Source: Blastocystis sp. Blastoise (Eukaryota > Protista > Bigyra: Opalinata). Taken from it: a DNA stretch of 64,000 bases. The notes below the pieces were generated by a model. That model did no database searches. It was not told where the DNA came from and saw nothing but the letters and a program-made list of their open reading frames with translations. Made by a program: the position numbers and the translations under genes. Shown here piece by piece: positions 3,831 to 27,862 of the stretch; the first letter of the stretch is position 1, and each line of letters opens with the position of its first letter. The DNA lies in assembly GCA_039096225.1 (NCBI GenBank), contig JBBPEB010000021.1:372001-436000 (forward strand), in the 5' to 3' direction.

Positions 3831-3878
3831 TTCTAGAACATTCTAGAACATTCTCGAAACTTCTAGAACATTCGAGAA
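3831..3878. promoter_or_regulatory. Heat-shock-element-like array (10 alternating nGAAn/nTTCn units)
   Basis: TTCtaGAAcaTTCtaGAAcaTTCtcGAAacTTCtaGAAcaTTCgaGAA, 45 bp upstream of the ORF at 3924. Confidence 0.7.
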
Positions 3879-3923
3879 TAATAAATTGTATTATTCGTTT
3901 TTTATATTTTTATACTATATATT

Positions 3924-4091
3924 ATGGATTCCCCAAAGCAATTTGCTCCAGATTATAAAGAAGGTACTTGGAAACCTTATGGAAATTTTGAAGTTGATGA
4001 ATTAAATGATAGTGATTCTGAAGTGGATACTATTAAAACTGAAAGTGAAGATGATTATGAAGATTATATAAAAAAATTTATTGATTTTTAA
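3924..4091 (+). CDS. Small acidic viral protein (55 aa), unknown function
   Basis: ATG...TAA reading MDSPKQFAPDYKEGTWKPYGNFEVDELNDSDSE...IDF. Not in the supplied ORF track. Preceded by an HSE array. Confidence 0.55.
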   Translation: MDSPKQFAPDYKEGTWKPYGNFEVDELNDSDSEVDTIKTESEDDYEDYIKKFIDF

Positions 4092-4165
4092 ATTAATTTT
4101 TATTAATAACAAAACAAATTGTTTAGTTTTTAAAAATAATAATAAATAAAACAAATTAAAATTAA

Positions 4166-5656
4166 CTAATGTTTTCTACGTTTATTTCTTAATTTTTTAT
4201 TTTTTGAAATACGTCTTTTTCTACGTAATCCATTACCTTCTTCGAGATCATAAAATACCTCACCATCATCTTCATCAAATGATTGAAATTCATCATCTTC
4301 TTTTTTATTTCTTTTATTATTATTTACAAGAGTGACATTTTCTACTGGATTGGGAATCGGGGCTACAGGTGTAATATTTGAAGTGAATTTATTCGTGACT
4401 GCTTGAGACATTGGAACAGTATCAGGTAAAGGAACAGTAGGATCATTTATAAGAGGAATTAAATTTGGAGGATTTGAATCTTCAATAGTAATATTATGAA
4501 TATTTTCTTGTGTTAGAGTATCAGGAGTAGATGAAGAAGTTGGTATAACATTATTATTTGCTTCTATTGGATTTTCTGTTTGTGGTATTTCCTCCTCTGG
4601 ATTCTTACCAAATAAAAATCCAGAAAAAGTATTGTATAAATTATTTACACCACTAACAACAGAGTTTGCAACTTTTTTAACACCATTAACAATTGGTGTT
4701 CCTACATTTGTTGCAGTATTAACAACTTTATTAACGAATGTTGGGTTTTCTGCATAGGGAATATAATTATTATGAAATGTTTTTGCTTGATCTTCTAAAG
4801 ATTTACTTTTGTTAAGTCTTTGTTGTTTCGTATCATTACCTGACATATGAGCAAATCTAAAATAGTTATCAGCTAATATTTTATTCTTTTTCTTAGCTTC
4901 ATTATCATTAGTTAATTTCCAATTATCATATAAATTATTTCTATCACTTACAAGTTTTCCTTTAATATCATTGAATCCTTCTTTTGGATCAACATTAATA
5001 TCTCTCCACCAATTCTTGAGATCTTTGAATTTATTTGCACCATAATCAACAGCATTACTTATTCCATGAGTGATGTTATTAATACCTCCAGTTAATTTAT
5101 CAGACACATTGTATACATCACTTACAGTGTGATAAATATTAGAAAATAAATTACCACCTCTAGAATATAAGTAACCATCACGATCTCTTTTAGTAAAATC
5201 AATAGCACTATCAATTGTACGAGGATTTAATAATCTAGAATATTTAGAATAATCAGACATATGATTTTGTTTCATATAAGGTAAGACATAATCATGAGCA
5301 TAAATAAGTTTTCTTGTAAAGTTCTTTGGAATTCTACCATCAGGTAATAGCCCAGATCCTTCATCTATTGGTTCACTTTCTTCTGATTCTTCTAATGAAC
5401 TTTGTATAACATCTTGTCTAGTTTCTGACAGATATGAATAGAATGGATTTGACGTTGCTCTATTAACCATATTACTTTCTATTCGCTTAACAGCAGCTAA
5501 AGAATTAGGAGCAATAGAATAATTAATTGGATGACGTTCTTCCCCATCAGGAATAGATCCTGGAACAATATAATTTCGATATTCATGACCAGTAGCACGA
5601 TGATTTACGCCTACTAATCCTTTATTTGAAACATTTAAACGAGCACTTTGTATCAT
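4166..5656 (-). CDS. PLV putative virion/core protein (496 aa) with GxG motifs and basic C-terminus
   Basis: Long intact ORF with EGSGLL, RGGNL and EGNGL motifs; ends RRKRRISKNKKLRNKRRKH. Confidence 0.7.
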   Translation of the reverse strand: MIQSARLNVSNKGLVGVNHRATGHEYRNYIVPGSIPDGEERHPINYSIAPNSLAAVKRIESNMVNRATSNPFYSYLSETRQDVIQSSLEESEESEPIDEGSGLLPDGRIPKNFTRKLIYAHDYVLPYMKQNHMSDYSKYSRLLNPRTIDSAIDFTKRDRDGYLYSRGGNLFSNIYHTVSDVYNVSDKLTGGINNITHGISNAVDYGANKFKDLKNWWRDINVDPKEGFNDIKGKLVSDRNNLYDNWKLTNDNEAKKKNKILADNYFRFAHMSGNDTKQQRLNKSKSLEDQAKTFHNNYIPYAENPTFVNKVVNTATNVGTPIVNGVKKVANSVVSGVNNLYNTFSGFLFGKNPEEEIPQTENPIEANNNVIPTSSSTPDTLTQENIHNITIEDSNPPNLIPLINDPTVPLPDTVPMSQAVTNKFTSNITPVAPIPNPVENVTLVNNNKRNKKEDDEFQSFDEDDGEVFYDLEEGNGLRRKRRISKNKKLRNKRRKH

Positions 5657-5780
5657 TTTAGTTTAATAAAATAATTATGATTTTTAAAACAAAACAAAAA
5701 TATATATATATATATTAACAAAATTATAATTTAAATGGCAAACATAATATTGCATAAATAAGTAAATATAATATAGTCTA

Positions 5781-6959
5781 TTAAGTTTCATCGTTTTGCT
5801 GATTTCTTAATCCACTATGTTCTTTATCAGGAAGTGCCTTATTTTCATTAAATAAACCTTCATTATATTTGATAATGAATTCATCAAGTGGCATTGTTCC
5901 GTACGTTTTATATATATAGCCTGACTTTTCAGCTGATCTAACATAAATTTTTTCATCTTTAAGAATGAATACCTGATCTTTAAACTCTGGATTATTACAT
6001 ATTACTTTTGAGTTCTTACCATTAACATAAATTGTGAATGGTATACCACTTTCAACAATATCATAATGCATACCTTGTTCATCCATCTTATCTTCAAATG
6101 CTTTGGCATCTTTTTTACGGTTACTCTCATAATTATCCATCTTAGCGTTTGTTTTATTAGTATCATTTTGACGATTCTTTTCATATTTATCCATTCTAGA
6201 TTGTGTATTGTTATAGTCTTGATGACGATTATTTTCATATTTATCCATCTTTGAATTTGTATTGTTAACATCTTTTTTACGATTATTTTCATATGTATCC
6301 ATTTTAGAGTTTGTAATATTATTATCTGATTGACGATTATTTTCATATGTATCCATCTTTGAGTTCAAATATTCGTTATCTTTATGTAGATTTTCATAAT
6401 TACTAGTCATATTTTGTTTCATTGAAGCTGCTTCAGCATGTATGTCATCATTATTGGTTTTAATTTGATATGAAATATTATTTAATTGATCATACATATC
6501 TTTTTGAGCATTTGAATAGAATTCATAATTCTCTTTATTCTGTTTATATGCTTCTGAATTCAATCCATTTAAGCCTTTTATTGAAGATAATAATGTTTCA
6601 TATTGATAATTATTAGGATTACTAGCATCATACCATATCTTACTGGTAGTAGGTACACCATAATTCGTTTGCCATTGAGATAACATAGATGAGTATCTTG
6701 CAGTATCTCCATTAGCTTTAGCTGAATTCATAGTAGCTATAAACATATCTTCAGGTGATTGACCATGATTTCTTAATGCTTGAACTGCCATTGAGCTATA
6801 CATAGATCCTTGTGCATTAGGATCATGTGCTAATGGTTGTACAGGTTGTTCATCTTGACAAATATATGAATTGGGTAACCATGGATCCCAAGATTGTTTT
6901 TTCTGATTTCTTGATAAAATATCATAGAGAGTTACACTATCTCCTAAATTACTTTGCAT
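5781..6959 (-). CDS. PLV protein (392 aa) with ~18-aa tandem repeats, probable coiled coil
   Basis: About five repeats of NSKMDxYENNRxxDxNxT. Confidence 0.75.
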   Translation of the reverse strand: MQSNLGDSVTLYDILSRNQKKQSWDPWLPNSYICQDEQPVQPLAHDPNAQGSMYSSMAVQALRNHGQSPEDMFIATMNSAKANGDTARYSSMLSQWQTNYGVPTTSKIWYDASNPNNYQYETLLSSIKGLNGLNSEAYKQNKENYEFYSNAQKDMYDQLNNISYQIKTNNDDIHAEAASMKQNMTSNYENLHKDNEYLNSKMDTYENNRQSDNNITNSKMDTYENNRKKDVNNTNSKMDKYENNRHQDYNNTQSRMDKYEKNRQNDTNKTNAKMDNYESNRKKDAKAFEDKMDEQGMHYDIVESGIPFTIYVNGKNSKVICNNPEFKDQVFILKDEKIYVRSAEKSGYIYKTYGTMPLDEFIIKYNEGLFNENKALPDKEHSGLRNQQNDET

Positions 6960-7035
6960 TATTTATTGTATTAAATTAAAAATAATTATATAACAAAACA
7001 AATAATTAATTATGAAATAATAAAAATTAAAATAA

Positions 7036-8073
7036 TTAATTTAAATGAAATTTTTTTAAGAAGAATTGAACAAGATTAATAATTAGATTAGTAGTAGTAT
7101 CAAAGGATGTAGAGTTGACAAGAGCACCACCACAACGTTCAGCATTCTCTTTTGTAACACCACTTCCACTAGGATTTTTAAAGTAGTTATCAGCAGTTTC
7201 TTTACGTTTCTTATCATCATCAGTAGTAATCATATTATAAGCGAAATCAATAGGGATACCAAGAGAAGGATAATAGTATTTTAATGCATTCACTACAATA
7301 GGAACAATCGTTTTAATAGTTTTAATAGCAGTATTAGCAATAATAGAATGCTTTTGTTTTGGATCCATAGGATATTCTTTATCGATAACGACATTAACAA
7401 TATCACGTACAGACACATGCTCATCATTTTTAGGTAATCGTTCTTTTATATCTTGTAATTTCTTTCTATTAGACTTTATATTATTAGAACGAATAGCCTT
7501 CTTAGCAATAATTCTTATTTGAGGAGTTACGAATTTACTTGTTTTCTTTTCTTTTTCTCGGTGACTCCCATGTTCTTTACGATGTTTCTGATGCCTTCTA
7601 TGTATACCTTGACCAAATATATCATCATAATTTTCATCTTCAAGATTTGCATTATTATAATCTTTATCATCATCAGCCATCATTTTTCTTGTTATTCTCT
7701 TTGGTTGATAAGTAGCATCATCATTATATAATTCATCATCTCTATTAGCATCTTCAATATGTTCTTCAAATTGTCTTTTCTTTTCTTCTTTTGCTTTTTC
7801 TTGACGTTTATTTTCTTTTCTTTTCTGATAATAATTATATCCAGCAATAGCTCCTAATGTACCTAATGCAGGAATAGCATAAGAAACACCATTTTTAACA
7901 CTATTCCACATAGCATCTTTAGCTTGTTGAGCAACAAGTTCTTCAAATCCAGTTCCTCCATATCTTACATAACGTTTATGATAAAGATCACGTCTATTTG
8001 ATTTTGGTGGTGATCCTCCAAATAATCGTGGATCACAATTTTGTTTTAAATATCTTTTTGTAATTGAACTCAT
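7036..8073 (-). CDS. PLV hypothetical basic/charged protein (345 aa), probable virion protein
   Basis: Intact ORF with hydrophobic stretch AIPALGTLGAIAGY and FGQGI, SGSGV, CGGAL motifs. Confidence 0.7.
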   Translation of the reverse strand: MSSITKRYLKQNCDPRLFGGSPPKSNRRDLYHKRYVRYGGTGFEELVAQQAKDAMWNSVKNGVSYAIPALGTLGAIAGYNYYQKRKENKRQEKAKEEKKRQFEEHIEDANRDDELYNDDATYQPKRITRKMMADDDKDYNNANLEDENYDDIFGQGIHRRHQKHRKEHGSHREKEKKTSKFVTPQIRIIAKKAIRSNNIKSNRKKLQDIKERLPKNDEHVSVRDIVNVVIDKEYPMDPKQKHSIIANTAIKTIKTIVPIVVNALKYYYPSLGIPIDFAYNMITTDDDKKRKETADNYFKNPSGSGVTKENAERCGGALVNSTSFDTTTNLIINLVQFFLKKFHLN

Positions 8074-8126
8074 AACAAAACAATAAAATAATTATGGTTT
8101 ATTTAACAAATTAAAATATAAAAAAA

Positions 8127-9164
8127 TTAATGAAAAGAAGGATAACCAGAATAATGTTTTTTATTTAAATAAGGATTGAAAATGCGTCGTTGACTATCTT
8201 GTATGATTTGATCTTGTATGATTTGTAAGATGGATTCTTTAGGTTTATCTTTTTCATCTCGTTCAATACCTTTCAATGAGACTTCTTCTTCAATAGGTAA
8301 AAACTTCTTCATTTTCTTTTCATATGTAGATACATGTTCATTAGAACGTTTAATACCACTACCTGATACTTCACCTTGTTCTTCTCGTTTCTCTTTTTCA
8401 CTATCTTCTTCTGTCCATTTCCGTTTCTTTACCATCTTATATACATTCTGTTTACTACCACAATCAGGATTAGTCCATATTGTTAAATCATCACTACCTT
8501 GTTTTAACATAAAGAATTGATGTGGATCATTCATTAATTCTTCATCTGTAAGAATTTCATTTAGATTTGATGGCATAATCTTTAATTTATCTGGTAAGAA
8601 TCCAGGATCACGTTTTAAGATTTGACTATTAATAAAGAAATGAGATACTTGACTTAATATAGATTGATTGGTAACATCTGTATGACTTTGAAGACATATA
8701 ATAGCATTCTGTTTATAATGACGACCTTTAGATAATATAGATACAATCAATTGTTTGGTTTGTCTAGATAATGGATAGATATCATCCAATACAATGAAAT
8801 TATGTTCTGGTAATTTATATGTATTGACTAATTCATCAACAGTTTTAATCTTTTTAAATTTATCATCTACAGAATCATACCATTTATAATCAATTCCAGC
8901 ATGTTCACAAATATCTTGAAAGGATGTATAACATTCATTCTTATTGGATGCATCAGGACAAATTACTGTGACTTGTTTATATTTATTTTTAAGATCCATA
9001 GAACATAAGAGGTTCACAGTTAAGAAAGATTTTCCTGAGAATGTTCTTGCAATAATCAATATGAATTTTGATTCATATGTTTTATGATGGGATTTTCCAT
9101 ATTTAAATTCTAAGACTCCACATCCTTTATGTGTTTCTTTTAATGGATTTATTTTATTCACCAT
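8127..9164 (-). CDS. A32-like (FtsK/HerA) genome-packaging ATPase
   Basis: Walker A ARTFSGKS, Walker B FIVLDD, A32-type motif LSKGRHYKQNAIICLQS. Confidence 0.9.
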   Translation of the reverse strand: MVNKINPLKETHKGCGVLEFKYGKSHHKTYESKFILIIARTFSGKSFLTVNLLCSMDLKNKYKQVTVICPDASNKNECYTSFQDICEHAGIDYKWYDSVDDKFKKIKTVDELVNTYKLPEHNFIVLDDIYPLSRQTKQLIVSILSKGRHYKQNAIICLQSHTDVTNQSILSQVSHFFINSQILKRDPGFLPDKLKIMPSNLNEILTDEELMNDPHQFFMLKQGSDDLTIWTNPDCGSKQNVYKMVKKRKWTEEDSEKEKREEQGEVSGSGIKRSNEHVSTYEKKMKKFLPIEEEVSLKGIERDEKDKPKESILQIIQDQIIQDSQRRIFNPYLNKKHYSGYPSFH

Positions 9165-9233: not shown

Positions 9234-9899
9234 TTAAGATGCAGTAAAGTATATATAAAGATTTGTATTTGATAAATCAATTGGATTATTTAATTGATCA
9301 TATACTTCCCATTGGATATCTGTATATTTACCATCAATACATGGAATAGATAAATCACTTAAAGCAAATGTATTATCAAATCCTTGTTTAGCATATAAAG
9401 GAATAGAAATCAAATCATTATCTTTATTAATAATATCACAATACACACGTAACATATAGATCTTATACCATGAAATATTATTAGATATATATTCATCACT
9501 GTAAGTAATTGGTGTATTAAAGTATTCATCATCTAATCCTAAATAATAAAAGAATTCTTTATTACTAAGACTTCTTCTGAATCCACTATACGTACCAAAT
9601 GTTTTTGTTTCTTTATCATAATAGAATGCACTCGTTTGTCCAGATACAGATATTGTCATCTTCTTACCAAGTTCAATTAATTTCTCAAAGAATTCTTCCA
9701 ATGAATAGTTACCAGCTGGAAATGTATGTGCTGTTGCATTATTTTCAGTTATTCTGAAAGATGGGATATTAATGATATCACTTGTATTCACTAATGTATT
9801 GATATGAGTAATATTTTTACCTACTAAATCCAAAGTATAATTGAATTGTTCATGACAGATTTGACTTGTAATTTTACTTAGATGAGATATTGATGTCAT
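9234..9899 (-). CDS. Putative minor capsid (penton) protein, single jelly-roll
   Basis: FPAGNYSLEEF, LRVYCDII and IQWEVYDQLNNPIDL resemble Polinton/PLV penton motifs. Lies between the ATPase and MCP genes. Confidence 0.6.
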   Translation of the reverse strand: MTSISHLSKITSQICHEQFNYTLDLVGKNITHINTLVNTSDIINIPSFRITENNATAHTFPAGNYSLEEFFEKLIELGKKMTISVSGQTSAFYYDKETKTFGTYSGFRRSLSNKEFFYYLGLDDEYFNTPITYSDEYISNNISWYKIYMLRVYCDIINKDNDLISIPLYAKQGFDNTFALSDLSIPCIDGKYTDIQWEVYDQLNNPIDLSNTNLYIYFTAS

Positions 9900-9997: not shown

Positions 9998-11221
9998 TTA
10001 ATTGGTAGCACCATCTCTAACAAATTTAACAAATATAAAATGAGCATATAAAGTATAAGGACCAGTAACAGTTCCACCAGTATATTCAGTTAATAATGAG
10101 ATATTAACTTCACAACCACTACGCGTATTGACATCAACAACACTTGAAATAGGGAATATATAAATAGGTTGTTCATACCACTTTTCACCATTTAAAGGAG
10201 ATTGAGGATGACTATTACATCTCCAAGTATTATAAAGCATAGCATTAGGAATAATTTGTGATGGATTCGTTGTTTTATACGTAGTAGGGAAATCCGTCTT
10301 TGGTAAGATATTTTGACCACCAATTTGGAATTGACATGATTTTAATAATTCAGTTTTAATAGGAATCATGCTCTTCTCTTGATTTGTGAAGTATAACATA
10401 CAATAATCAGGTACGAAAACAACACTTCTATTGGATAAGAATTGTTGTGGAGTTGGTGTACCTGATACTGATGCTTGTGAATAAACAGGTGTAGTGAATG
10501 CAGATATCTGACAATTATTAGGAATACATTTAATCAAAGCACGTGGATCATTACCAAAATTAATATCATAAATTTGTTGAAGATGAATATAAACACGATC
10601 AAATTTCAATGCAGTGATTACAGTGGTACCGGTAAATAGATTCTTTAAATAATTTGTAACGAATTGCATCTTCAAAGATTTTACTTTAATAGCACAATCA
10701 AATGTACCAAGACCAGTAATAAGAGATAAAGGAATAATAACTTGAGCTTTTTCTTTCATTTCCATTCCAGCAATACTACTCAACGTGTTATTATATAAGC
10801 ATTCTGTCATACTATACATAGATTTATCAATTTCATCTTTACTTAATTCTTTAATAGTAACAAATTTTCTTGCTTTACTGGATTCAATAGAAGATTCAGA
10901 ATAATTAATAAGAATATCTTGACCCGTAGGAGATACAAACGTAAGATCTGTAGTAATCTTATCAATAATACTATAGATATTAGAATGTTGTACAACTGAA
11001 GATGTTGAATTTTTGTCTCTAGTACCAGTAATATTGAAATTCAGTTCTAAGAATGAATTACTGAAATCAATATAAGGGCTATCCACTGAATTATATAAGA
11101 ATTCAAATGGATAAGGTTGATTTAATAAATCTTGACTTGTAGAAACTAGAATAGGAATTTGTACAGGTTTAATAGTTTGATTTGCCTTTGAAGGTAAGAA
11201 TTGTCTTGGGAATCCTTCCAT
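9998..11221 (-). CDS. Putative double jelly-roll major capsid protein 1 (407 aa)
   Basis: Beta-rich sequence of MCP size, N-terminal YIDFSNSFLELNFNI, IIPL motif, position in the morphogenetic cluster. Confidence 0.65.
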   Translation of the reverse strand: MEGFPRQFLPSKANQTIKPVQIPILVSTSQDLLNQPYPFEFLYNSVDSPYIDFSNSFLELNFNITGTRDKNSTSSVVQHSNIYSIIDKITTDLTFVSPTGQDILINYSESSIESSKARKFVTIKELSKDEIDKSMYSMTECLYNNTLSSIAGMEMKEKAQVIIPLSLITGLGTFDCAIKVKSLKMQFVTNYLKNLFTGTTVITALKFDRVYIHLQQIYDINFGNDPRALIKCIPNNCQISAFTTPVYSQASVSGTPTPQQFLSNRSVVFVPDYCMLYFTNQEKSMIPIKTELLKSCQFQIGGQNILPKTDFPTTYKTTNPSQIIPNAMLYNTWRCNSHPQSPLNGEKWYEQPIYIFPISSVVDVNTRSGCEVNISLLTEYTGGTVTGPYTLYAHFIFVKFVRDGATN

Positions 11222-15485: not shown

Positions 15486-15908
15486 ATGGAGCCTAAATCT
15501 GTATCTGAATCCTTACATTCTTTATCAAGTACAAGTTCAACAAGTTCAGATAGTTCAACAACAACCACATTATCCGAAGAAGAAATAGAAAAGAAAAATA
15601 CTTTATTAGAATTTATTATAAAAGCTATAAAATGTTTATTTGAGAAATCAACTGAATTCTTTCAATTAATTGTTAAAAATATAGATATTCATTGTAATTG
15701 TTGTAATCCACAAACAAAGAAAGTCTATTATAAGACAATGAAAATACAACAAACGATTATAGAAGAAGAAGTCAAACATATATCTGAAGTCTTGAATGAA
15801 TTAGAAGAAATTGATTCTAATCAAAATGAATCAATACAAGAATTAGCTGTTCAATTAATGAAATTAAATATAAGTGTTGATTCTATTGTTCAATCTCTTC
15901 ATTTATAA
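15486..15908 (+). CDS. PLV hypothetical protein (140 aa)
   Basis: ATG ORF with Ser/Thr-rich N-terminus, CNCC cluster and C-terminal heptads; followed by TGTTTTGTT. Confidence 0.65.
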   Translation: MEPKSVSESLHSLSSTSSTSSDSSTTTTLSEEEIEKKNTLLEFIIKAIKCLFEKSTEFFQLIVKNIDIHCNCCNPQTKKVYYKTMKIQQTIIEEEVKHISEVLNELEEIDSNQNESIQELAVQLMKLNISVDSIVQSLHL

Positions 15909-17772: not shown

Positions 17773-17816
17773 TTTTAAAACAAAACAACTTTTTATAATA
17801 AAAAAAATATTATTAT

Positions 17817-20800
17817 TTAATTTGGTATAGCATATAAAGTATTATCTATTAAAATTCGTTTTGTTGATGACGTATTATGATATTGATCTTCACTATAAAC
17901 AATTTCTTCTTTCTTAGATAAACAATTGGATAAACAGAATAAATCTGTATCCACACAATTATTATAAGTATTATCAATCATTAAACCACAAATACCAATA
18001 GCATTCCCTCCCTTATAGAAATTTGAAGTATGTTTTCTATGAATATTCACAATATCTATAGAATTGAATGTATCTTTACTACTTAAACAACCAAATAAAG
18101 CATTTGTAAATTTATCTAAATCTTTCTTAATCGTAAATTGATTATTATTATTCACTTTCTTATAACTATTAAAAATATCTTCAATAGTAACTACATTCAA
18201 ATAATAAGGATCTATAGTAATATGGTTATCAACAAAAGATTTCAAATCATATCCTTCTGTACTACGATCAAAGAATCGTTTCTTACATTCACTTATATGA
18301 TATTCATTATCTAATTCATGCATATCTAATTGCATACTAGAATAGAAATAATTACTTACTAGATAACTAAATATAATAGAACGATTCTGATAGAATTTAT
18401 CGGATAGAGTATAATCCATTTCATAATGATTGGGTTTCAATCTCTTTTCTACTGTCTGTTGACGTTTCGGTAAATTATGATCTACATAATCTTCATATAA
18501 ATTAGCATTACCAGGAGGGAAATAACGACAACATGAAGGTAAGAAACAAACTCTTCTTTCAATAGGTCCAGCATTCACAGCAGTAGGTTGAATATTACTT
18601 GTCATAAATAAAGTACCCGTGAAATGAACTTTTGTAAATATATTACTGAATAATTTACGAGCACTAGCACCTTCTTTCTTTTCTGCTATTTCTTTAAATA
18701 CTTTAGAAGAGAATGGATTAAATGTTTTCTTTCTACCAGTAACATCTTCTTCTATTAATTCATTCATATAATACATAGTCTTATTAGACATATCTACAAT
18801 CTTAGGAGCTATAGATGTTTCTTCTAAATTATCTGGATTTACTATAATACATTGATTACTACCTACAATACGAGATATTAAATCAGTTGTTATTGTTTTA
18901 CCATTACTACCTGTACTACCATATAATATATAAGAAACTGTTTTCTGAGTATTGACATAGAAAGCAGTGGTTAAGATACGTAACATAATACTTTCATATT
19001 TCTTATCGAATTCACAATATCTTGCAATGTGTTGTTCAAATAATTGGATAATATCTTTCTGTTCATTATTTATATTCCAACTTACATTAAATTCAGTATC
19101 AATTAATAAATCTTCAAACACCATATCTTCTTTATGATATGGTTGGATATAATATTGTCTAGGATCTTCTTCTGTAGATTCTTTTGGATATAAATAACCA
19201 AGTTGTGTATAGATAACACGTTCTTTATGAACCATATACGTATCTAAATATTCTTTATAAGATTTACCATAAGTCTTCAAATAACGATTCAACCATTCTT
19301 TATAATGATATTCATTAGTAACAGAAGCAGACATTATTTTATCAACTATTTTTTGATGTTGTTCATTCTCTTTAGAATATAATCTTGATAATTTGAATTT
19401 CTCTACAATCGATTTCATAAATGTAGTTATTTTGGTTTCAAAGAAATTAATATCATAATTATTCTTACAACGTCTTAAGATATTATATTCATCAAATGTA
19501 TATAAGATAAAATTATCTTTATCTAATATAATAGAAACAATTTCATTAAATTCTAATAATTGAAATAACATAACTAATGTTTGTGAATCTACAAGATTAA
19601 AGGATTGAATACATTCTAAAATAGACATAAATATGAAATCATTATCATCATCTTTATTAAATAATTTATTATCCATTAATATCTTCAAAATATAATTATT
19701 CGATAAATGAGTAGGATCAACTTGTATATGATTCCATGTAGATTCAATTACATCATCACTTCGATCATGACCATAACGTAATGAATAATTTTTAAATAAT
19801 TCTAATCCTCTTGTTGTATTACAAATCTGTTTTGCTGCACAACATAATTTATACCAAGTATTATGAGATTCAAAATAATTCATATCTTCAATAGAACCAA
19901 TCAATAATAAATATCGTTCTAATAAAGCTTCTTTAGATGCTGTAGTATCCAATATAGTATCTGTAGAAATCAACATAGGAATATCTTTAATATCTTGTAT
20001 AGAACATAATATAGTACGTGAACAATTATTTAATCTTGCATAATAACGTTTATAACGTGAATATTGTTTTAATTTATAAAAGATAATAGGATTAATAATA
20101 TCACTTATAAGATCATCTTCATTCTTATAATTCAATAATGTTTTAAAATAATAATGTTCATCGATTTCGCCTTCTATTTTCTTCCATGTTTTATTGGTAT
20201 ATTCTTCATATAATTTATAAGTAGATGGAGAATTATCTTTACTACAACCAAGAAACATACAACCATTATTCTTTCTGGGTTTACCAATAACATTATAATC
20301 AATGAATTCTTTTATATCTAAATTATTCATTTTACATAAATCAACCAATTTGGTATTCAGAATCATACTATTATATAAGAAAAATAAATAATCACCATTT
20401 ACAAACCAATTCGTATATATATGAATTCCCCATGAATAATGTATTTCATTATGAACTGTCTTCTTATTCACTTCTTTCTTTGTATACACAAGCGAAATAA
20501 ATTCTTGATTATAATAATGAATACAATGATTACATATTTCTTCTATAAATTCATGAATAAAAGAATCTGTTAGAAAAGAAAAATCATTTGATATTTGGTG
20601 ATAATCTAAATCAAACCATAATCTTCTATAATTAGTTGATGTATTACAAGGAGTACAATCAATATAATGTAATAATTCTTTTGGATTTTGGTAATTAGTA
20701 AATAGACTTTTATAAAATGGTAATGGATTTGGTATAATAATTTCACTATGATTATCTTTTGAATTATCATGATTAAAGGAACCAAAAGTATAAACAAAAT

Positions 20801-20819
20801 GAATTTGTGAATTTTCCAT
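17817..20819 (-). CDS. Primase-helicase (AEP + PriCT-2 + D5-like SF3 helicase), 1000 aa
   Basis: AEP motifs WFDLD and GIHIY; PriCT-2-like WYKLCCAAK...GLELFKNYS; Walker A YGSTGSNGKT; Walker B YYMNE; motif C FMTSN. Confidence 0.88.
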   Translation of the reverse strand: MENSQIHFVYTFGSFNHDNSKDNHSEIIIPNPLPFYKSLFTNYQNPKELLHYIDCTPCNTSTNYRRLWFDLDYHQISNDFSFLTDSFIHEFIEEICNHCIHYYNQEFISLVYTKKEVNKKTVHNEIHYSWGIHIYTNWFVNGDYLFFLYNSMILNTKLVDLCKMNNLDIKEFIDYNVIGKPRKNNGCMFLGCSKDNSPSTYKLYEEYTNKTWKKIEGEIDEHYYFKTLLNYKNEDDLISDIINPIIFYKLKQYSRYKRYYARLNNCSRTILCSIQDIKDIPMLISTDTILDTTASKEALLERYLLLIGSIEDMNYFESHNTWYKLCCAAKQICNTTRGLELFKNYSLRYGHDRSDDVIESTWNHIQVDPTHLSNNYILKILMDNKLFNKDDDNDFIFMSILECIQSFNLVDSQTLVMLFQLLEFNEIVSIILDKDNFILYTFDEYNILRRCKNNYDINFFETKITTFMKSIVEKFKLSRLYSKENEQHQKIVDKIMSASVTNEYHYKEWLNRYLKTYGKSYKEYLDTYMVHKERVIYTQLGYLYPKESTEEDPRQYYIQPYHKEDMVFEDLLIDTEFNVSWNINNEQKDIIQLFEQHIARYCEFDKKYESIMLRILTTAFYVNTQKTVSYILYGSTGSNGKTITTDLISRIVGSNQCIIVNPDNLEETSIAPKIVDMSNKTMYYMNELIEEDVTGRKKTFNPFSSKVFKEIAEKKEGASARKLFSNIFTKVHFTGTLFMTSNIQPTAVNAGPIERRVCFLPSCCRYFPPGNANLYEDYVDHNLPKRQQTVEKRLKPNHYEMDYTLSDKFYQNRSIIFSYLVSNYFYSSMQLDMHELDNEYHISECKKRFFDRSTEGYDLKSFVDNHITIDPYYLNVVTIEDIFNSYKKVNNNNQFTIKKDLDKFTNALFGCLSSKDTFNSIDIVNIHRKHTSNFYKGGNAIGICGLMIDNTYNNCVDTDLFCLSNCLSKKEEIVYSEDQYHNTSSTKRILIDNTLYAIPN

Positions 20820-20905: not shown

Positions 20906-21055
20906 GAAGCTTCTAGAACATTCTAGAACATTCAAGAACATTCTAGAACATTCTATAATAGTAAATATTACTTTATATTTTTAAATGTTCTAGAACCTTC
21001 AAGAACATTCTAGAACCTTCGAGAACCTTCTAGAACCTTCGAGAACCTTCTAGAA
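20906..21055. promoter_or_regulatory. Two long HSE-like arrays upstream of the primase-helicase
   Basis: 20906-20953 and 20988-21055 (14 units) keep TTCnnGAAnn periodicity with variable nn. Confidence 0.7.
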
Positions 21056-21165: not shown

Positions 21166-21789
21166 TTAAATTTCAATTGGTTCTTGACTATTAATATATG
21201 TACATGAATGAGGCCATCCATTTTTATCATATAAAATACCATCCCAGAAATACATTTGTTTTGAAGGATCTCTTTTAATCTTGTTAATACTCTTAGCATG
21301 AACAACTTCATAAGTATAAACTTTACCTTTTTCATCATAAAGAAATCCATCTTCCATATGGAATTTCATAATATCAAAATCATCATCTTTAGAATTCGAA
21401 TGTTCTTTAGAATCTTCAGAACATAAAATAGTAGTTCTATCACTTTCTAAAAGATCTTCAGTATTGATAATATCTTGAATATCTTGTTCTTCATTAAGTT
21501 GTTGAGTATAAATATCAGCAGCGAATTCTTCATAATCTTCAAGACCTTTAATAACCGCGTTTATACGTTTTAAAGCTGATCTATAGTTTTCGACTTCGAA
21601 AGAAGCAAGACGTTCTTTAGATTTTGCAATACCCAATAGATTCTTTTCTCTATTCAATTGAGACTGATGTAAATCAATATCACGAAGAACATTCTTATGA
21701 ACTTCAACAGCCTTCTTAGAATTCTTTAGAAGTTCCATACGAACAGTTTGAAGACATTTACGGGAATCAGCAGAAAGATTAAATTGCAT
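21166..21789 (-). CDS. PLV hypothetical coiled-coil protein
   Basis: First ATG at 21789 (MQFNLSADS...). Short HSE at 21901-21918 upstream. Confidence 0.65.
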   Translation of the reverse strand: MQFNLSADSRKCLQTVRMELLKNSKKAVEVHKNVLRDIDLHQSQLNREKNLLGIAKSKERLASFEVENYRSALKRINAVIKGLEDYEEFAADIYTQQLNEEQDIQDIINTEDLLESDRTTILCSEDSKEHSNSKDDDFDIMKFHMEDGFLYDEKGKVYTYEVVHAKSINKIKRDPSKQMYFWDGILYDKNGWPHSCTYINSQEPIEI

Positions 21790-22187
21790 TATAATCGCGA
21801 ATATCGTTACAGAGAGAAAATTTGTATTTATCAAAATGAAATAAATAATACATTTAAATGGAATATTAAATATTCTAGGAGACAGTCTAGAATCTCTATG
21901 GAATGTTCTAGAAGGTTCATTTGATTGGCTAATTTTGTCGACTTAGCATTTTTTATTTGTGTTTCAATGACGAGTATAGTTGGCATCTGTAATCTGATTG
22001 GATAAAAAAATTAGTAAAACACAATTAGACGATGACGACGATGTGTCATACGAAATAAGTTATTTTATTGGCTTATTTTCCAGCTGGAAGCAATAGGCTT
22101 TTGTTAGCAACTGAAATGAAGAACTGTACACTAAAAATAGTATATTTAATATATTGTATAAAAATACTTTTGAAGGTTTAAATAATC

Positions 22188-22715
22188 ATGGAAATTCCTG
22201 ATAGTCTTTCTGCCAGTTTATCCCCTTTCGGTCAAGCCATGATATCCCCCTTGTTGAATCAATTTGAAAATAGTGTTTCTGCAAATCCTATGGCTTTACC
22301 CAATGATAATGATTTCTGTTTTAATTCGCGTGACGAAATCATATTTGAAGATCCACCTCAAGAAATTCATCCAATCAATGATGTTTACGTATCTAAAAAT
22401 CCAGATAGATATCATTCGGTTAACAATCAACCAATACAATTTCAAGATCAAGTAAATACAAATCCTGATAAGCAAGCATTATTATTTACAAATGAGGAGT
22501 TAACAAATATATCCAGTCAATTCGAATCTTTATTTCAAACTATGGAAACGGCTGATAATATATTAAATAGTATTTATTGTACTGTTGATCATTTAAAAAC
22601 AAAGATTGAAAGTCAGAAACAAGATTTGAAACAGATTCATGATGATTCTAAAGAAATTGTTTCATTATTATCCGAATATTCTATTCCTTCTATGTCTGAA
22701 ATATTTGATCATTAA
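22188..22715 (+). CDS. PLV hypothetical acidic protein (175 aa) with C-terminal coiled coil
   Basis: ATG ORF followed by TGTTTTGTTT at ~22740. Confidence 0.65.
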   Translation: MEIPDSLSASLSPFGQAMISPLLNQFENSVSANPMALPNDNDFCFNSRDEIIFEDPPQEIHPINDVYVSKNPDRYHSVNNQPIQFQDQVNTNPDKQALLFTNEELTNISSQFESLFQTMETADNILNSIYCTVDHLKTKIESQKQDLKQIHDDSKEIVSLLSEYSIPSMSEIFDH

Positions 22716-22805: not shown

Positions 22806-22913
22806 AGAATTCTTGAATGGTCTAATGGATCTATTAAAGAAATATGTAACTACAGTATCATGGTTCGATTCCGTTAAAATGTTTCCATTAGATTATTCAA
22901 GTGTTCTTTTTTT
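22806..22913 (+). ncRNA. Putative Pol III-transcribed hairpin RNA (VA-RNA-like)
   Basis: A-box TGGTCTAATGG 22818-22828, B-box GGTTCGATTCC 22862-22872, 18-bp stem 22812-22829/22884-22901, T7 terminator 22907-22913. Confidence 0.6.
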
Positions 22914-22959
22914 CTAGAACCTTCTCGAACCTTCTAGAACATTCTCGAACCTTCTCGAA
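22912..22959. promoter_or_regulatory. HSE-like array (10 units) upstream of the putative SSB
   Basis: TTCtaGAAccTTCtcGAAccTTCtaGAAcaTTCtcGAAccTTCtcGAA. Confidence 0.7.
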
Positions 22960-23035: not shown

Positions 23036-23629
23036 ATGTCTTCAACTGAATTTAAGAAACCTACTATTCTTGATACTTCTAACTTTAATTTACAATGGGA
23101 TGACACCAAAGAAAATGCTGTTCTTTTAAATAATAATCATCGTGTATGTATTTCTACTGATGCTACACCATGTTTATTTGGTTATATTGTTACACGTGAT
23201 AAATGGACTTTAATAACGATTGAAGATGATAATCAAGTATTCTTAACTGCTTATAAAGAACTTTATCGTAAATTATGTGAATTATGTCCTGATGGTGATA
23301 TTGTTAATTTTGTACGTATGGATAATGGTAAATATAAGATTACAATTAAAGTACCTATTAATGCATCGAAGAATGTTACTATTGATATTACTGATAAAAG
23401 AGATAAGAAGATTAATATCGGTAAAGATCCTAAGTTAACTTACGAAGAAATACGTGAAAAGTATATTCCACCAAATACGTTATGTAAAGTATTATTTACA
23501 ATACATGGTATTCATCGTTATAATAACAAGTATTATATTGGTTTATATGCACGTTCTATTAAAGTATTCGATAAATCTACGAAGAATACTAACAGCAATG
23601 ATACTATTATTGATTTAACTAAATTATAA
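23036..23629 (+). CDS. Putative OB-fold single-stranded DNA-binding protein (197 aa)
   Basis: C-terminal LCKVLFTIHGIHRYNNKYYIGLYARSIKV resembles the beta-strand pattern of viral SSBs; size fits. Confidence 0.5.
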   Translation: MSSTEFKKPTILDTSNFNLQWDDTKENAVLLNNNHRVCISTDATPCLFGYIVTRDKWTLITIEDDNQVFLTAYKELYRKLCELCPDGDIVNFVRMDNGKYKITIKVPINASKNVTIDITDKRDKKINIGKDPKLTYEEIREKYIPPNTLCKVLFTIHGIHRYNNKYYIGLYARSIKVFDKSTKNTNSNDTIIDLTKL

Positions 23630-23704
23630 ATTTTTAATGTTAAATTTATTTTTTATTAATATATTTGTTTTGTTTATAAATAATTTTATAATTGAAATAA
23701 AAAA

Positions 23705-25432
23705 ATGCAAAGTTGTATCTTAGGAATGCCAAGTCCTGGTACTTTTGGTATGAATTTAATTTCAACTGGAAAAGAATATAGGCGATATAATACACAACCA
23801 TTACATAAAATGGATCAATATAATCCAATATTTCATGAAATAGGTCCAAATTCATCTATGCCTGTGTCTACTTTAGAAAGTAAAGAAATACATGATGGTA
23901 AAGAAGATGATTATGTAGATCGTTCTAAAACATTTGGTAAAGATGCTGTTCCACAAGGAAATGGTGCTTTAATTCGTGCTAGAGCAGCAGGTAAAGGTGT
24001 AATGAAAGCAGCTGGTCCAGAAGAAGATAAAATAGATGGTGAAGATCGTCAATATAAAGTATTAAATCCATGTAAACCAAGACGTAAATCTGGTAGAGGA
24101 ATTATTCCAAATAAATCAGAAATCAATAAATTAGAGAATAATCAAGGTTCTGGTATTGGTGATGCAATTAAAAATAAAGTAAAAGATATGTATCAACGAA
24201 ATGTTCTAGATATAAGAGATGCTATTGTAGATAAGAAAGCTAATAGAAAAGCTCGTGATGCATTAGCTATTTTAGCTCAATATGTTGGTGATGGTCATCA
24301 TGATCTTGATGATGAATTCAAAAGATTCTATGAACATAAAATAAAACGTGGTGGAAAGATTCCTATATCAGTTGCTTCAGCAATTATGAATGCAATTAAA
24401 AATAAGAAAATGATTAAGAATCCAAAATTAAGAAGAATGTTAAGACCTTCAATTATACCAAAATATATAGATTTAGATTCAGCTCAAAGTGGTGATGGTA
24501 TATTAAGAGTTAAAAGAGGTGGTGGGTTCTGGGACTCATTTACAACTATAGCACCATCTCTTTTAGATGTAGTTGATAAAGGTATGAATTCTTTTGCTAA
24601 AGGTAGAAAAGCTTATTATGATACACATTTGGCACAACAATCAAGTGAATTAAATGATATGGAATTTGAAATGGAAAAATTAAAACGTCAACAAGCATTA
24701 AATGAAATGAAAAAACAAATAGGTAATGGTATAGTAATGGGAACAATTAATGATGGTTACGATACAGTTGAACGACAATCAGAATTATTAGATCAAGAAG
24801 TACAACCATTAAGAGATTTGCACAGTATGAAACAACAACTTAGAAAGAATCTTCCTGTTCGTCAACCACCTCCTCCAGCGGCACCCATTCGACCACAACC
24901 AGAAATTGAACCTGAATTGAATGTTGATACATTTGATATACCTCAAAATGATACACCAAGACATCCACAAACTCAACAACCTCCTCAACCTTATAAACCT
25001 ATGTCTCGTGATGAACAAAGTTATTATTATAAGATTTATGGTTTCCCTCAAAATGATAAAGAGAAAGTCGATAGAAAATGGAAAGAAGATGAAAGGGATA
25101 AACGAATAGCTGCAAGAAGAGCTAAACGTAGAGGTTATGGTGGTCGTGTTAAATTAAGTAAATCAGAATTCTTAGAACGAATGAGAAGAGGAAAAGAAGC
25201 TAAAAAGAAAAGAGGTGGTGATTTACCTCCAATAGTATCAGCTTATACAGATTTTGTAATACCTGCACAAGTAGCTCAAAGGAAACGTAAAGTAGCTAAA
25301 AATGATTTAAAACAATTACAAACAATAAAACAAAAAATGGATAATAATGAAATATTAGATAGAGGTGAGCAAATGTTTTGGAAAGAAAAGAAGTATATGT
25401 TATCAAAAAACTCAGGGGAGGGGATCTGGTAA
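23705..25432 (+). CDS. Basic core (DNA-condensing) polyprotein-like protein with many GxG/GG sites (575 aa)
   Basis: Arg/Lys-rich with about 12 motifs such as QGNGA, AGKGV, SGRGI, QGSGI, SGDGI, RGGGF, IGNGI, RGGDL, SGEGI. Confidence 0.7.
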   Translation: MQSCILGMPSPGTFGMNLISTGKEYRRYNTQPLHKMDQYNPIFHEIGPNSSMPVSTLESKEIHDGKEDDYVDRSKTFGKDAVPQGNGALIRARAAGKGVMKAAGPEEDKIDGEDRQYKVLNPCKPRRKSGRGIIPNKSEINKLENNQGSGIGDAIKNKVKDMYQRNVLDIRDAIVDKKANRKARDALAILAQYVGDGHHDLDDEFKRFYEHKIKRGGKIPISVASAIMNAIKNKKMIKNPKLRRMLRPSIIPKYIDLDSAQSGDGILRVKRGGGFWDSFTTIAPSLLDVVDKGMNSFAKGRKAYYDTHLAQQSSELNDMEFEMEKLKRQQALNEMKKQIGNGIVMGTINDGYDTVERQSELLDQEVQPLRDLHSMKQQLRKNLPVRQPPPPAAPIRPQPEIEPELNVDTFDIPQNDTPRHPQTQQPPQPYKPMSRDEQSYYYKIYGFPQNDKEKVDRKWKEDERDKRIAARRAKRRGYGGRVKLSKSEFLERMRRGKEAKKKRGGDLPPIVSAYTDFVIPAQVAQRKRKVAKNDLKQLQTIKQKMDNNEILDRGEQMFWKEKKYMLSKNSGEGIW

Positions 25433-25524
25433 AGAGTAAAGATGAGAAACTTATTCAAAATTCGATGAATTGCGATAATCCTATTATATCTGATAAAACT
25501 CGTCATGTTACTCCTAGATCCCCT
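25405..25524 (+). promoter_or_regulatory. Predicted -1 programmed ribosomal frameshift signal
   Basis: In-frame slippery heptamer A_AAA_AAC (25405-25411), 7-nt spacer, then stem AGGGGATCTGG (25419-25429) pairing with CTAGATCCCCT (25514-25524). Confidence 0.7.
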
Positions 25525-25998
25525 GATAATTTTAAACAAACTCTATCTCAATATTGTAATATACCCAATTCTTTAATATCTCAATTATATAATTATGCTT
25601 ATTTAAATAAACCTACCTCTTCTGTTGCTTGTGATCGTGCTGAAAATGTTATGAAACAATTAAATAAAACGAATTCTCAATCTTATAATTATTATAATAG
25701 TTATGATGATTTTGAACAAAATATAGATCAAGATCAAACTAAATTTAATATGATCTTTCATGAAAGTCCTAGTGATCCTTATAATGGTCATTTTGAAGCT
25801 GTTATTTATAATGGTAATAAAAATATAGAACACTATTCATCATTAGGAAATGAACCTACTTTTTCAAAATCATTTATTCAAAATCATAATATTCAATATA
25901 ATCCTATTCAACACCAAAAAACTACAAGTAATGCAAATGGTTGCTTTTATTATTCTTTACTTTATTTACTTTCTAATGGAAATCTTATGCCTTGTTAA
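25411..25998 (+). CDS. Adenain/Ulp1-like maturation cysteine protease (in the -1 frame of the core ORF; first own ATG at 25465)
   Basis: His in NGHFEAV, IEHYSSLG (usual YDSxG position), Gln and Cys in QHQKTTSNANGCFYY. Confidence 0.72.
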   Translation, partial: LRGGDLVKSKDEKLIQNSMNCDNPIISDKTRHVTPRSPDNFKQTLSQYCNIPNSLISQLYNYAYLNKPTSSVACDRAENVMKQLNKTNSQSYNYYNSYDDFEQNIDQDQTKFNMIFHESPSDPYNGHFEAVIYNGNKNIEHYSSLGNEPTFSKSFIQNHNIQYNPIQHQKTTSNANGCFYYSLLYLLSNGNLMPC

Positions 25999-26342
25999 AA
26001 CATTCTAGAATATTCTAGAATCTTTAATTTATTATATTAATATTTTGTATAATTAATTTGTTTTGTTTAATATTTAATACTATTATGACAAAGAAACGAT
26101 TTGGCAATTACTACTTAGATCGTAGTGCAGAAACTTTAGAGAATGTAAATGAAATACTGTCAGTTATTGAAATTGTTCTTATTATTATATATATTTTACT
26201 TTACTTTTATATGTCCAAGAAACGTTCTAGAACATTCTAGAACATTCATTTTGAACTGGCTCTATTTGTAGAATCTTTAATTTATTATATTAGTGTTTTA
26301 TATAATTAATTTGTTTTGTTTAATCATTGGTTAATTTAAATA

Positions 26343-26717
26343 ATGAACAAGAAATATCTTAGTTATTCTTATTTTTGTCGTGTGATGAAGAATCTAAAAG
26401 AAGAAGGAATTAAATCTAAAAAGAATGAAATAGCGAATCTATTAGAACAATTTTTAAATAATAATAACAACAAAAATCTTAGTGATTTGCAATTGAGTTA
26501 TTGTAGAAATATGTTACTTTATATAGATGATCCTGTGATTCATCAACGTCTTGAAATGTTATTGGATAAACAATATATGAAGAATGAGAATCAATATCAA
26601 GATGATAAGAATCTTATTCAACCCAATAATATGTTTATGCCAACTATGAAAAGTAATCAACAACAAAATCAATATCAAAATAATAATAATAATCTATCTT
26701 TCTTACCTTTTAATTAA
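26343..26717 (+). CDS. PLV hypothetical protein (124 aa)
   Basis: ATG ORF preceded by an HSE array at 26225-26247; N/Q-rich tail. Confidence 0.55.
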   Translation: MNKKYLSYSYFCRVMKNLKEEGIKSKKNEIANLLEQFLNNNNNKNLSDLQLSYCRNMLLYIDDPVIHQRLEMLLDKQYMKNENQYQDDKNLIQPNNMFMPTMKSNQQQNQYQNNNNNLSFLPFN

Positions 26718-26790
26718 TTTTTATATCCTTTTATTACTAGTTGTTTAGTTATATTCAAAATTAAAGCAAAACAAACATGAAAACATAAAA

Positions 26791-27726
26791 TTATTCAATT
26801 AATTTTTTAAATAAATTATTATTTTCTAAAGATACATAAGAATTAATATGTGTATAATCATTATGACATAAAGCAGAAGCAGAATTTTCTATATCTTGGA
26901 ATGTATTGGTTGTAGTTGTAGCATATAATTTTCTTAATGCATTAATGGTTAATTTTGGATGGATTTGTTTTAAATGCTTATTCACAAACCAATCAAATGC
27001 TTTAGTAGTAAATCCAGTTCTTACAGAAGATTCAAATATAAATTTACGATTTGGATTTCTTTTTAAGAGTAATTCTAGATCTTCAATCAATTCTTTTGGT
27101 GCATCTAATTGAATTGTAGAGTATTTACCAGCAGTTTTATAATCATTTAATAGAATAGAACCAGTATGTTTCTCTTTATCATAAACAATATAATTCTTAT
27201 GAATAGCTGGATCAATAGTATCTTCTGGTGATAGAATGAATAATTGAGCATAATCAGCACGAGCAGGAGGAAGATAGGAGTAAAAATCTAATATTAATCG
27301 TAATGGATTATAATTTTCTAATTTATCGTGATATTCATGTAAATATGGAGTCGTAATACCATCTTTAATAAGATCTTGAATTAAAGTACGTTTCTTATTA
27401 TCCAGATATTTTTCATACATTGAATTGATAATCACATAAAATTCACACCATTTATTCAAAATACCTTCTTTATTTAATGAAGAAACATTACGTATAATAA
27501 ATAATATCAATTCACATAACGATTTCATTGGACTAATTTTGATTTTACGTTCATTTACCATATAATCCATGAATGAATAAGGATTCTTTAAGAATTCTGA
27601 GAACTTTTTAAATGGTAATGGGAAAATATATAAATTGAAATAATTAGTTAAACGTTTTTTCCAAATATCAGAATAATTTGAATTCTGTATAACCAAAAGA
27701 TACTTGTCATAATTTGTATTTTTCAT
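26791..27726 (-). CDS. Tyrosine recombinase 2 (~311 aa)
   Basis: R in PPARADY, K in DYKTAGKY, TINALRKLYAT, H...Y in LCHNDYTHINSY. First ATG at 27726. Confidence 0.88.
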   Translation of the reverse strand: MKNTNYDKYLLVIQNSNYSDIWKKRLTNYFNLYIFPLPFKKFSEFLKNPYSFMDYMVNERKIKISPMKSLCELILFIIRNVSSLNKEGILNKWCEFYVIINSMYEKYLDNKKRTLIQDLIKDGITTPYLHEYHDKLENYNPLRLILDFYSYLPPARADYAQLFILSPEDTIDPAIHKNYIVYDKEKHTGSILLNDYKTAGKYSTIQLDAPKELIEDLELLLKRNPNRKFIFESSVRTGFTTKAFDWFVNKHLKQIHPKLTINALRKLYATTTTNTFQDIENSASALCHNDYTHINSYVSLENNNLFKKLIE

Positions 27727-27814
27727 TGATTTTCTCAAGTAGAATCTCTAAAACTTCTATTTTCAAAAGAATAATACATAAGAAAATCAAAATAAAATAT
27801 CTAAGATTCTCATG

Positions 27815-27862
27815 TTCTAGAATGTTCTAGAAGTTTCGAGAATGTTCTAGAATATTCTAGAA
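27815..27862. promoter_or_regulatory. HSE-like array (10 units) upstream of tyrosine recombinase 2
   Basis: TTCtaGAAtgTTCtaGAAgtTTCgaGAAtgTTCtaGAAtaTTCtaGAA. Confidence 0.7.

Follow-up and report, generated by a model that had tools for sequence, protein, structure and literature searches.

Polinton-like viruses are integrated by the thousand in protist genomes, and what triggers their reactivation is mostly not known. The gene set of such viruses can include a tyrosine recombinase and a primase-helicase. Endogenous mavirus and EMALE virophages and the polinton-like viruses of Tetraselmis are reportedly reactivated by giant viruses. Polinton-like viruses of 14 to 40 kb have been described as integrated in protist genomes (PMC10120064), and the accessible part of that paper mentions neither Blastocystis nor promoters nor stress. 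Blastocystis MELD virus encodes PolB and a retrovirus-type integrase (Starrett et al., PMC8502044). Among elements with sites for heat shock factor (HSF), the Arabidopsis Ty1/copia retrotransposon ONSEN carries heat shock elements (HSEs) in its long terminal repeats (LTRs), and its activation by heat has been shown (PMC13602373); HSF1 sites are also present in Epstein-Barr virus (EBV) Qp and in the HIV-1 LTR (PMC9157408). Here, we analyzed a 64,000-nucleotide stretch of Blastocystis sp. Blastoise (contig JBBPEB010000021.1, positions 372,001 to 436,000; referred to as the window), which contains a multicopy polinton-like provirus bounded by terminal inverted repeats (TIRs). Eight arrays of alternating TTC and GAA lie upstream of its DNA replication genes, one of its two recombinase genes, and small ORFs, but not of its capsid genes, and are probably promoters through which host HSF acts on an early gene module. 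No description of HSE arrays in polinton-like viruses or Blastocystis proviruses was found in the literature searched, most subscription papers and bioRxiv supplements being outside its scope, and the accessible part of the punuivirus preprint does not mention HSF.

All eight TTC/GAA arrays listed in a preliminary description of this DNA were confirmed, coordinates and unit counts included. Their positions in the window and their settings relative to open reading frames (ORFs) are as follows.

3831..3878: HSE-type array of 10 units, 45 bp upstream of a 55-codon ORF
20906..20953: HSE-type array of 10 units, 86 bp upstream of the primase-helicase ATG
20988..21055: HSE-type array of 14 units, 168 bp upstream of the primase-helicase ATG
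21901..21918: HSE-type array of 4 units, intergenic between divergent ORFs and accompanied by three CCAAT words
22912..22959: HSE-type array of 10 units, 76 bp upstream of an ORF resembling a single-stranded DNA-binding protein (SSB)
26003..26020: HSE-type array of 4 units, 64 bp upstream of a 51-codon ORF
26225..26247: HSE-type array of 5 units in a second copy of the segment at 26003, 95 bp upstream of a 124-amino-acid (aa) ORF
27815..27862: HSE-type array of 10 units, 88 bp upstream of the recombinase 2 ATG

The eight arrays are far beyond chance expectation. The 4-unit pattern TTCnnGAAnnTTCnnGAA matched 23 times in the window, compared with a mean of 0.01 (maximum, 1) in 100 shuffles. Elsewhere in the 64 kb, a 3-unit run in host DNA at 45054 was the sole run of at least 3 units, so that the earlier claim of no long arrays in host DNA holds. 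The commonest 8-mer, TTCTAGAA, was present in 22 copies in the element versus 2 in host DNA, and an A preceded GAA in 54 of 67 units across the arrays. Most units are TTCTAGAACA or TTCTAGAACC, and for the most part the arrays consist of 10-bp repeats in tandem; with strands collapsed, the spacer was TA in 21 of 31 TTCnnGAA and CA or CC in 23 of 28 GAAnnTTC. As the spacers are mostly TA and CA/CC, the arrays were probably built by slippage. For 34 units, selected with up to 3 mismatches allowed at any position, 36 differences were counted, of which 31 fell in spacers and 5 in cores (P = 1.5e-8, a value inflated by the nonindependence of the units). This bias fits selection on the TTC/GAA cores.

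Array-to-gene gaps were measured to the ATG rather than to mapped transcription starts. The upstream placement claimed for the primase-helicase, the SSB-like ORF, recombinase 2, and small ORFs was borne out, with arrays 45 to 269 bp before the ATGs; in the divergent region at 21901, the gaps to the nearest ATGs were 111 and 269 bp (ORFs of 207 and 175 aa). The marked ORFs comprise the primase-helicase, the probable SSB, recombinase 2, and five of no known function, while the unmarked ORFs are 11 virion-side genes and recombinase 1. No array was found within 300 bp upstream of any of the 12 unmarked ORFs, in agreement with the claim that the capsid, ATPase, core, and recombinase 1 genes lack them, and 3-unit sites with one mismatch were also absent from these regions. 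Genes for the putative core and protease sit inside the marked region with no array upstream, and the 26003 array begins 4 nt past the putative protease stop codon, ahead of the protease 3′ motif. Among role-assigned genes, an array preceded three of four nonvirion genes versus none of four (P = 0.14) or none of eight (P = 0.018) virion genes; across all ORFs, the numbers were 8 of 9 versus 0 of 11 (P = 7e-5), a contrast that is partly circular.

An HSE is defined as at least three contiguous inverted nGAAn pentamers (PMC9157408), and all eight arrays exceeded this definition with 4 to 14 perfect units. The host genus does encode HSFs, as had been presupposed: two to three IPR000232 domains are listed for each of eight Blastocystis genomes (supplement of PMC10690189). 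In the stramenopile Phytophthora, HSF PITG_04701 was shown by protein-binding microarray and electrophoretic mobility shift assay to bind TTCTAGAA, and binding was stronger with three units (PMC11267843). The same 8-mer occurs twice in the 49-bp ONSEN HSE. Furthermore, HSP70 is upregulated by heat in human-derived Blastocystis (PMC4151958). The HSE definition, the host HSFs, the stramenopile HSF site, and the viral arrays described below all speak for the proposed host HSF, whose binding to the arrays is drawn by analogy; on these grounds, the arrays are quite likely to be bound by host HSF.

Comparable arrays were found in unrelated circular Rep-encoding single-stranded (CRESS) DNA viruses. 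The pattern TTCTAGAAnnTTCnnGAAnnTTC was present at 20 loci in IMG/VR, and a CRESS Rep is encoded at 7 of them, on 6 contigs from 4 lineages. A fifth CRESS lineage (L150), with a confirmed Rep, came from a related pattern. The CRESS arrays are perfect and consist of 5 to 6 units.

L138: 446–468
L140: 4978–5000
L141: 254–276
L143: 315–342
L145: 1484–1511 and 4545–4567
L148: 3767–3789
L150: 998–1025

The array lies 98 to 134 bp upstream of the Rep ATG in L140, L145, and L150 and 110 bp upstream of a putative capsid ATG in L143, and it is at the end of Rep in L138. A TATA-type word stands between array and gene in L143, L145, and L150, and CRESS origin-like stem-loops are located away from the arrays. 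In L145, a TGACGTAA word adjoins the array and a TATA box follows it; two related genomes keep the cores, and their spacers differ. Composition-matched control patterns had a Rep at 0 of 41 and 0 of 7 loci. As the Rep BLAST queries were drawn from the test set, Pfam was also run on control ORFs, and no Rep was detected among 84 ORFs that represented 36 of these 41 loci; the other five were omitted, four as near-duplicates and one for lack of a long ORF. Because the element encodes none of the proteins of the viruses with circovirus-like and geminivirus-like Reps, the apparent convergence of unrelated CRESS lineages on this array points to a host factor. Array-pattern matches in contigs resembling nucleocytoplasmic large DNA viruses (NCLDVs) were set aside, as two lay between convergent genes and a control pattern also gave an NCLDV-like match before a similar zinc-finger gene.

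A sequence of events can be proposed from this anatomy. The provirus, which apparently has no RNA polymerase gene among its ORFs, would be transcribed in the host nucleus, where long perfect arrays could load several HSF trimers cooperatively. The HSF-activating stress might be heat in the gut of a cold-blooded animal, exposure to oxygen once the protist is shed, or proteotoxic load caused by infection. It would lead first to production of the primase-helicase, SSB, and recombinase 2. Copying or excision and reintegration would come next, and the virion genes would be switched on later, in a second, HSF-independent wave that answers to another signal. Taken as a whole, a switch in which HSF turns on the early module in a stressed host has, in our judgment, an even chance of being correct. 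That binding of HSF would lead on to excision under stress is putative and goes beyond the observed anatomy. A more general proposal is put forward tentatively, at somewhat less than even odds. In it, the element is a temperate polinton-like virus that needs no helper and leaves latency by a direct link to the host's proteotoxic stress sensor, and the borrowing of HSF through perfect arrays upstream of replication genes recurs, as a strategy not described before, in nuclear DNA viruses of microbial eukaryotes, including unrelated CRESS viruses.

Other motifs and sequencing runs were examined as well. Downstream of 18 of 20 element ORFs there is a TGTTT(T/A)GTT-type word in sense orientation (4108–26770), with 18 occurrences in the element versus 1.0 in shuffles. 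It resembles the Blastocystis downstream gene element, which suggests host 3′ processing. The word is also seen after both oxidoreductase-like genes and a transposase ORF outside the element (28764, 39623, 50963). Five of 11 unmarked genes, but none of 8 marked genes, are preceded by the word CATAATTA at a distance of 5 to 47 nt (15 nt for three of the ATGs, 5 and 47 nt for the others). It was not enriched overall (10 versus 6.2 in shuffles) and is tentatively regarded as a late promoter word of the virion-side genes (4166–11227). No RNA run on record was listed as containing this stretch. Contigs of run X1, guessed to be RNA, fell in 25 of 30 bins of 17000–28000 and represented several variants; the uncovered bins include three array regions, although contig gaps prove nothing and depth cannot rank genes. 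No contigs on 17000–28000 were obtained from runs X2 and X3.

A number of observations weigh against HSF control of an early module. As the end arrays (3831–3878 and 27815–27862) are inverted homologues (46 of 48 positions identical) and those at 26003 and 26225 lie within one local duplication, there are about six independent sites rather than eight. The spacers are less varied than first listed, and constant TTC/GAA cores between changing spacers, initially taken as the signature of a protein-binding site, do not single out HSF, as arrays built in the same way are present at phage and bacterial loci. Arrays of at least seven units were present at 16 IMG/VR loci, 13 of which are phage- or prophage-like by their ORFs, as judged by eye. 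In the phage-like loci (L001–L006, L008, and L011–L016), arrays of 7 to 10 units, mostly with spacers other than those of the element, lie in some cases inside a putative replication initiator gene or before terminase-like genes (also by eye). A metagenome scan for 8-unit arrays covered 120 of an estimated 370 loci, with Pfam run on 143 ORFs of the first 80. Pfam-named neighbors at 22 of these loci included just one Hsp20 gene, 128 bp downstream; three of the 22 loci are LTR retrotransposons, two are transposase linked, and at least four are bacterial. As phages and bacteria have no HSF, the TTCnnGAAnn geometry is, judging from these loci, not unique to HSF. In addition, no function is known for five of the eight marked ORFs, which makes the gene-class contrast partly circular. 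Recombinase 1 is an exception among the nonvirion genes in having no array upstream, and either recombinase may be the one that excises the element, while only recombinase 2 carries an array. The largest array pair (24 units) adjoins the primase-helicase gene, as an origin might. The CRESS counts are small, and five of the seven CRESS contigs have neighboring sample numbers and may stem from one campaign. The contigs of run X1 cover both marked and unmarked genes. As to 3′ processing, the TGTTT(T/A)GTT-type word was within the shuffle range in the host part (7 versus a mean of 1.95 and a maximum of 8), and the downstream gene element is described as not enriched in tortoise Blastocystis isolates in the accessible part of PMC10690189. 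Finally, the Phytophthora HSF that binds TTCTAGAA is expressed mainly in zoospores (PMC11267843), so HSF control need not mean heat.

This last point leads to the strongest alternative, in which the arrays are bound by host HSF not in response to stress but all the time or at a certain life stage, such as encystment or excystment, the element simply using a strong host activator for its early genes. It shares all the sequence evidence of the stress switch and draws further on the developmental regulation of stramenopile HSFs, of which the zoospore gene is an instance, and on the presence of element contigs in a run merely guessed to be RNA; very long perfect arrays could moreover be filled at basal HSF levels. 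However, Blastocystis has two to three HSFs versus 17 expressed in Phytophthora (PMC11267843), so that one probably serves the heat shock response, and it would presumably be costly if about 20 copies expressed a recombinase and a replicase constantly. We regard this alternative as rather unlikely.

According to a second alternative, the arrays are sites of an element-encoded protein, either origin iterons of the primase-helicase or operators of a small protein, and their likeness to HSEs is a coincidence of 10-bp palindromic geometry. P4/SaPI-type primase-helicases bind iterons, and the HSF-free phage and bacterial loci, some with arrays in a putative initiator or before terminase-like genes, fit such a role. 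So do the two homologous arrays at the inner edges of the TIRs and the 24 units next to the primase-helicase gene, and the five marked ORFs of no known function leave room for an operator-binding product. However, about six independent sites, each before a start codon, suit promoters better than one origin, and the phage arrays mostly have other spacers. Circovirus-like and geminivirus-like Reps, with no protein in common with the element, converge on the array away from their stem-loops, whereas the element ends own a hairpin that is a likelier recombinase or origin site. No HSF-like or helix-turn-helix family was detected by Pfam (up to E = 5) in eight small and medium element ORFs, and cumulative skews track gene orientation and indicate no single origin. 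An element-encoded binder is therefore doubtful, in our view quite improbable. That the arrays are functionless 10-bp minisatellites, spread via slippage and local duplication, is very improbable: most units are one of two words, two array pairs are duplicates, and homogeneous arrays of this type exist elsewhere (metagenome loci), but the differences number 31 in spacers and 5 in cores, and in an element that is 84% coding (21,435 of 25,609 bp), the arrays stand before start codons of one gene class, with none in 38 kb of host DNA.

Control of an early module by host HSF is proposed for an element with the following features besides the arrays.

3108..3820, plus strand: left TIR, ~710 bp, arms 96 to 99% complementary to 28010–28724
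3924..4091, plus strand: 55-codon acidic ORF, function not assigned, no Pfam match, followed by the 3′ motif
4166..5656, minus strand: 496-aa tape-measure-like ORF, probable virion protein (phrog_167, E = 4.1e-8)
5781..6959, minus strand: 392-aa ORF with 54-bp repeats in the virion gene block, no assigned role (from sequence)
7036..8073, minus strand: 345-aa basic ORF, putative core protein (19% K+R, three xGG sites)
8127..9164, minus strand: P-loop ATPase, probable packaging ATPase (phrog_2666, E = 1.5e-10; Walker A in sequence)
9234..9899, minus strand: 221-aa ORF adjoining the capsid gene, candidate minor capsid (penton) protein by position
9998..11221, minus strand: double-jelly-roll major capsid protein (structure model with pLDDT 71, and Foldseek)
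11397..12890, minus strand: major capsid paralogue (29% identity, E = 9e-43)
12978..15416, plus strand: 812-aa ORF, no assigned role, no array (from sequence)
15486..15908, plus strand: 140-aa ORF, no assigned role, no array (from sequence)
15976..17772, plus strand: tyrosine recombinase 1, no array (profile match to the recombinase 2 family, probability 95%, E = 2e-8)
17817..20819, minus strand: primase-helicase (phrog_1156, E = 2.4e-9; primase motifs by eye, superfamily 3-type helicase)
21166..21789, minus strand: 207-aa ORF, no assigned role (from sequence)
22188..22715, plus strand: 175-aa acidic ORF, no assigned role, C-terminal part coiled-coil-like (weak coiled-coil matches only)
23036..23629, plus strand: probable SSB, a lead only (ESM Atlas 0.94 to 0.95 to viral clusters)
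23705..25432, plus strand: 575-aa ORF, basic and RGG-containing, putative precursor of a core protein, no array (motifs by eye)
25465..25998, plus strand: putative maturation cysteine protease, no array (His ... Gln-x-Cys pattern by eye)
26343..26717, plus strand: 124-aa ORF, no assigned role (from sequence)
26791..27726, minus strand: tyrosine recombinase 2 (catalytic residues; profile match to integrase 3nkh, E = 0.0012)
28010..28724, minus strand: right TIR, partner of 3108–3820

The TIRs enclose 25.6 kb. The element combines this size with a double-jelly-roll capsid, a tyrosine recombinase, and a non-PolB replicase, as polinton-like viruses do, and the P-loop ATPase (phrog_2666) was counted as the packaging ATPase. 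Neither PolB nor a retrovirus-type integrase was matched by Pfam among the 18 element ORFs of at least 124 aa, so the element is classed as a polinton-like virus and not as a Polinton/Maverick in the strict sense. The outer ~120 bp of each TIR (3105–3235 and its right-end mirror) can form a long hairpin (DNA fold of −33.4 kcal/mol, z = −7.2), which is a candidate recombinase or replication site.

The major capsid protein had no Pfam match. The best PDB match of its model in Foldseek was the major capsid protein of the virophage Sputnik (E = 5e-12, TM only 0.46, 12% identity), with PRD1 and PBCV-1 capsids also among the matches, and its best viral fold match was a MELD virus protein (E = 1.6e-17, TM = 0.70, 14% identity). 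The two capsid paralogues lie side by side (9998–12890). The primase-helicase was aligned with two relatives at 43%. In recombinase 2, R156, K197, and R265 were invariant and H288 and Y296 at least 90% conserved in an alignment of 41 sequences, which came from the upper end of the 150 matches listed. A PDB search with recombinase 2 as a single sequence gave nothing useful, and a direct BLAST comparison of the two recombinases was not significant. For the probable SSB, DUF5871 occurs in 15 to 18% and DUF2738 in 10 to 13% of the members of the matched atlas clusters, at a recognition value below the usual range; we take these families to be SSBs. Its single-sequence model was unusable (pLDDT 37), its homologue search returned one near-identical copy and nothing else, and nothing on DUF2738 was found in a literature search. 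A sequence search with the putative protease gave no PDB match. The 175-aa ORF was considered as a mimic of the HSBP1/HSF coiled coil, which was unsupported, the matches (up to E = 5; ESM Atlas score, 0.75) being to generic coiled coils.

Near-identical proteins carry the NCBI label Blastocystis sp. Blastoise. The primase-helicase belongs to a cluster of 19 members (15 listed, 12 full length) and recombinase 1 to one of 21, on many contigs; such near-identical clusters, corresponding to about 20 copies, suggest recent activity. Relatives with 41 to 62% protein identity were found in many public metagenome assemblies, and a related-locus search of viral, metagenome, and genome contigs found no DNA loci around them. 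Three more capsid families (47 to 51% identity) and two more recombinase families occur under the same label (P0077, P0079, P0080, P0157, and P0158), so several related provirus families appear to share the Blastocystis host.

The provirus apparently lies within the 3′ end of a DNA transposon (3080–3111 and 28725–30993). Its left flank resembles a transposon terminus, its right flank runs on into transposase-like ORFs, and no clear target-site duplication was found at the flanks. The transposon was labeled hAT by eye only, and Pfam gave no match. A second, inverted copy, with GTCGCAACT subterminal repeats, spans ~31870–35755. Elsewhere in the host DNA, there is a long inverted duplication (39790–43650 and 46655–50845) made up of two divergent paralogues that resemble pyruvate:ferredoxin oxidoreductase and bear N-terminal leaders; read from their translations, these genes fit an anaerobic protist. 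Three 73-bp tandem copies containing CTCACCACTGGGG are present at 1196–1417, and a tRNA-like gene was noted by eye near 2476–2548.

If the proposed switch is real, it would be a eukaryotic counterpart of the SOS induction of prophages. A particular host factor and a particular gene set are named by the promoter sequences, in a culturable organism. Since there are about 20 near-identical copies, their induction could also remodel a common gut protist, or kill it, when it is stressed. The CRESS cases suggest that such HSF wiring is more general.

Like ONSEN, the element is mobile and has HSF-type sites containing TTCTAGAA. Unlike ONSEN, which has one LTR promoter of about five units, it is a DNA provirus whose activation is predicted, and one class of its genes is preceded by separate arrays, the longest of 14 perfect units. 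As with EBV Qp and the HIV-1 LTR, a latent virus would have a host HSF site driving a gene needed for replication; however, those are single sites in animal viruses, compared with module-wide long perfect arrays in a protist polinton-like virus. The element resembles described polinton-like viruses in size, double-jelly-roll capsid, ATPase, tyrosine recombinase, terminal repeats, and many copies and differs from them in a capsid missed by Pfam, two capsid paralogues, two recombinases, and the HSE arrays. With MELD virus it shares the nature of a capsid-encoding midsize DNA virus in Blastocystis data whose virion proteins are unrecognizable, but it has tyrosine recombinases and a primase-helicase, and no ORF matched PolB or integrase. 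The accessible part of a study of egoviruses reports no gene-flux link between them and Blastocystis (10.1101/2024.03.23.586382), and another helper may exist. Like the mavirus/EMALE and Tetraselmis elements, this provirus is a small integrated protist DNA virus that would await a trigger; whereas theirs is a giant virus, the promoters described here point to a host factor.

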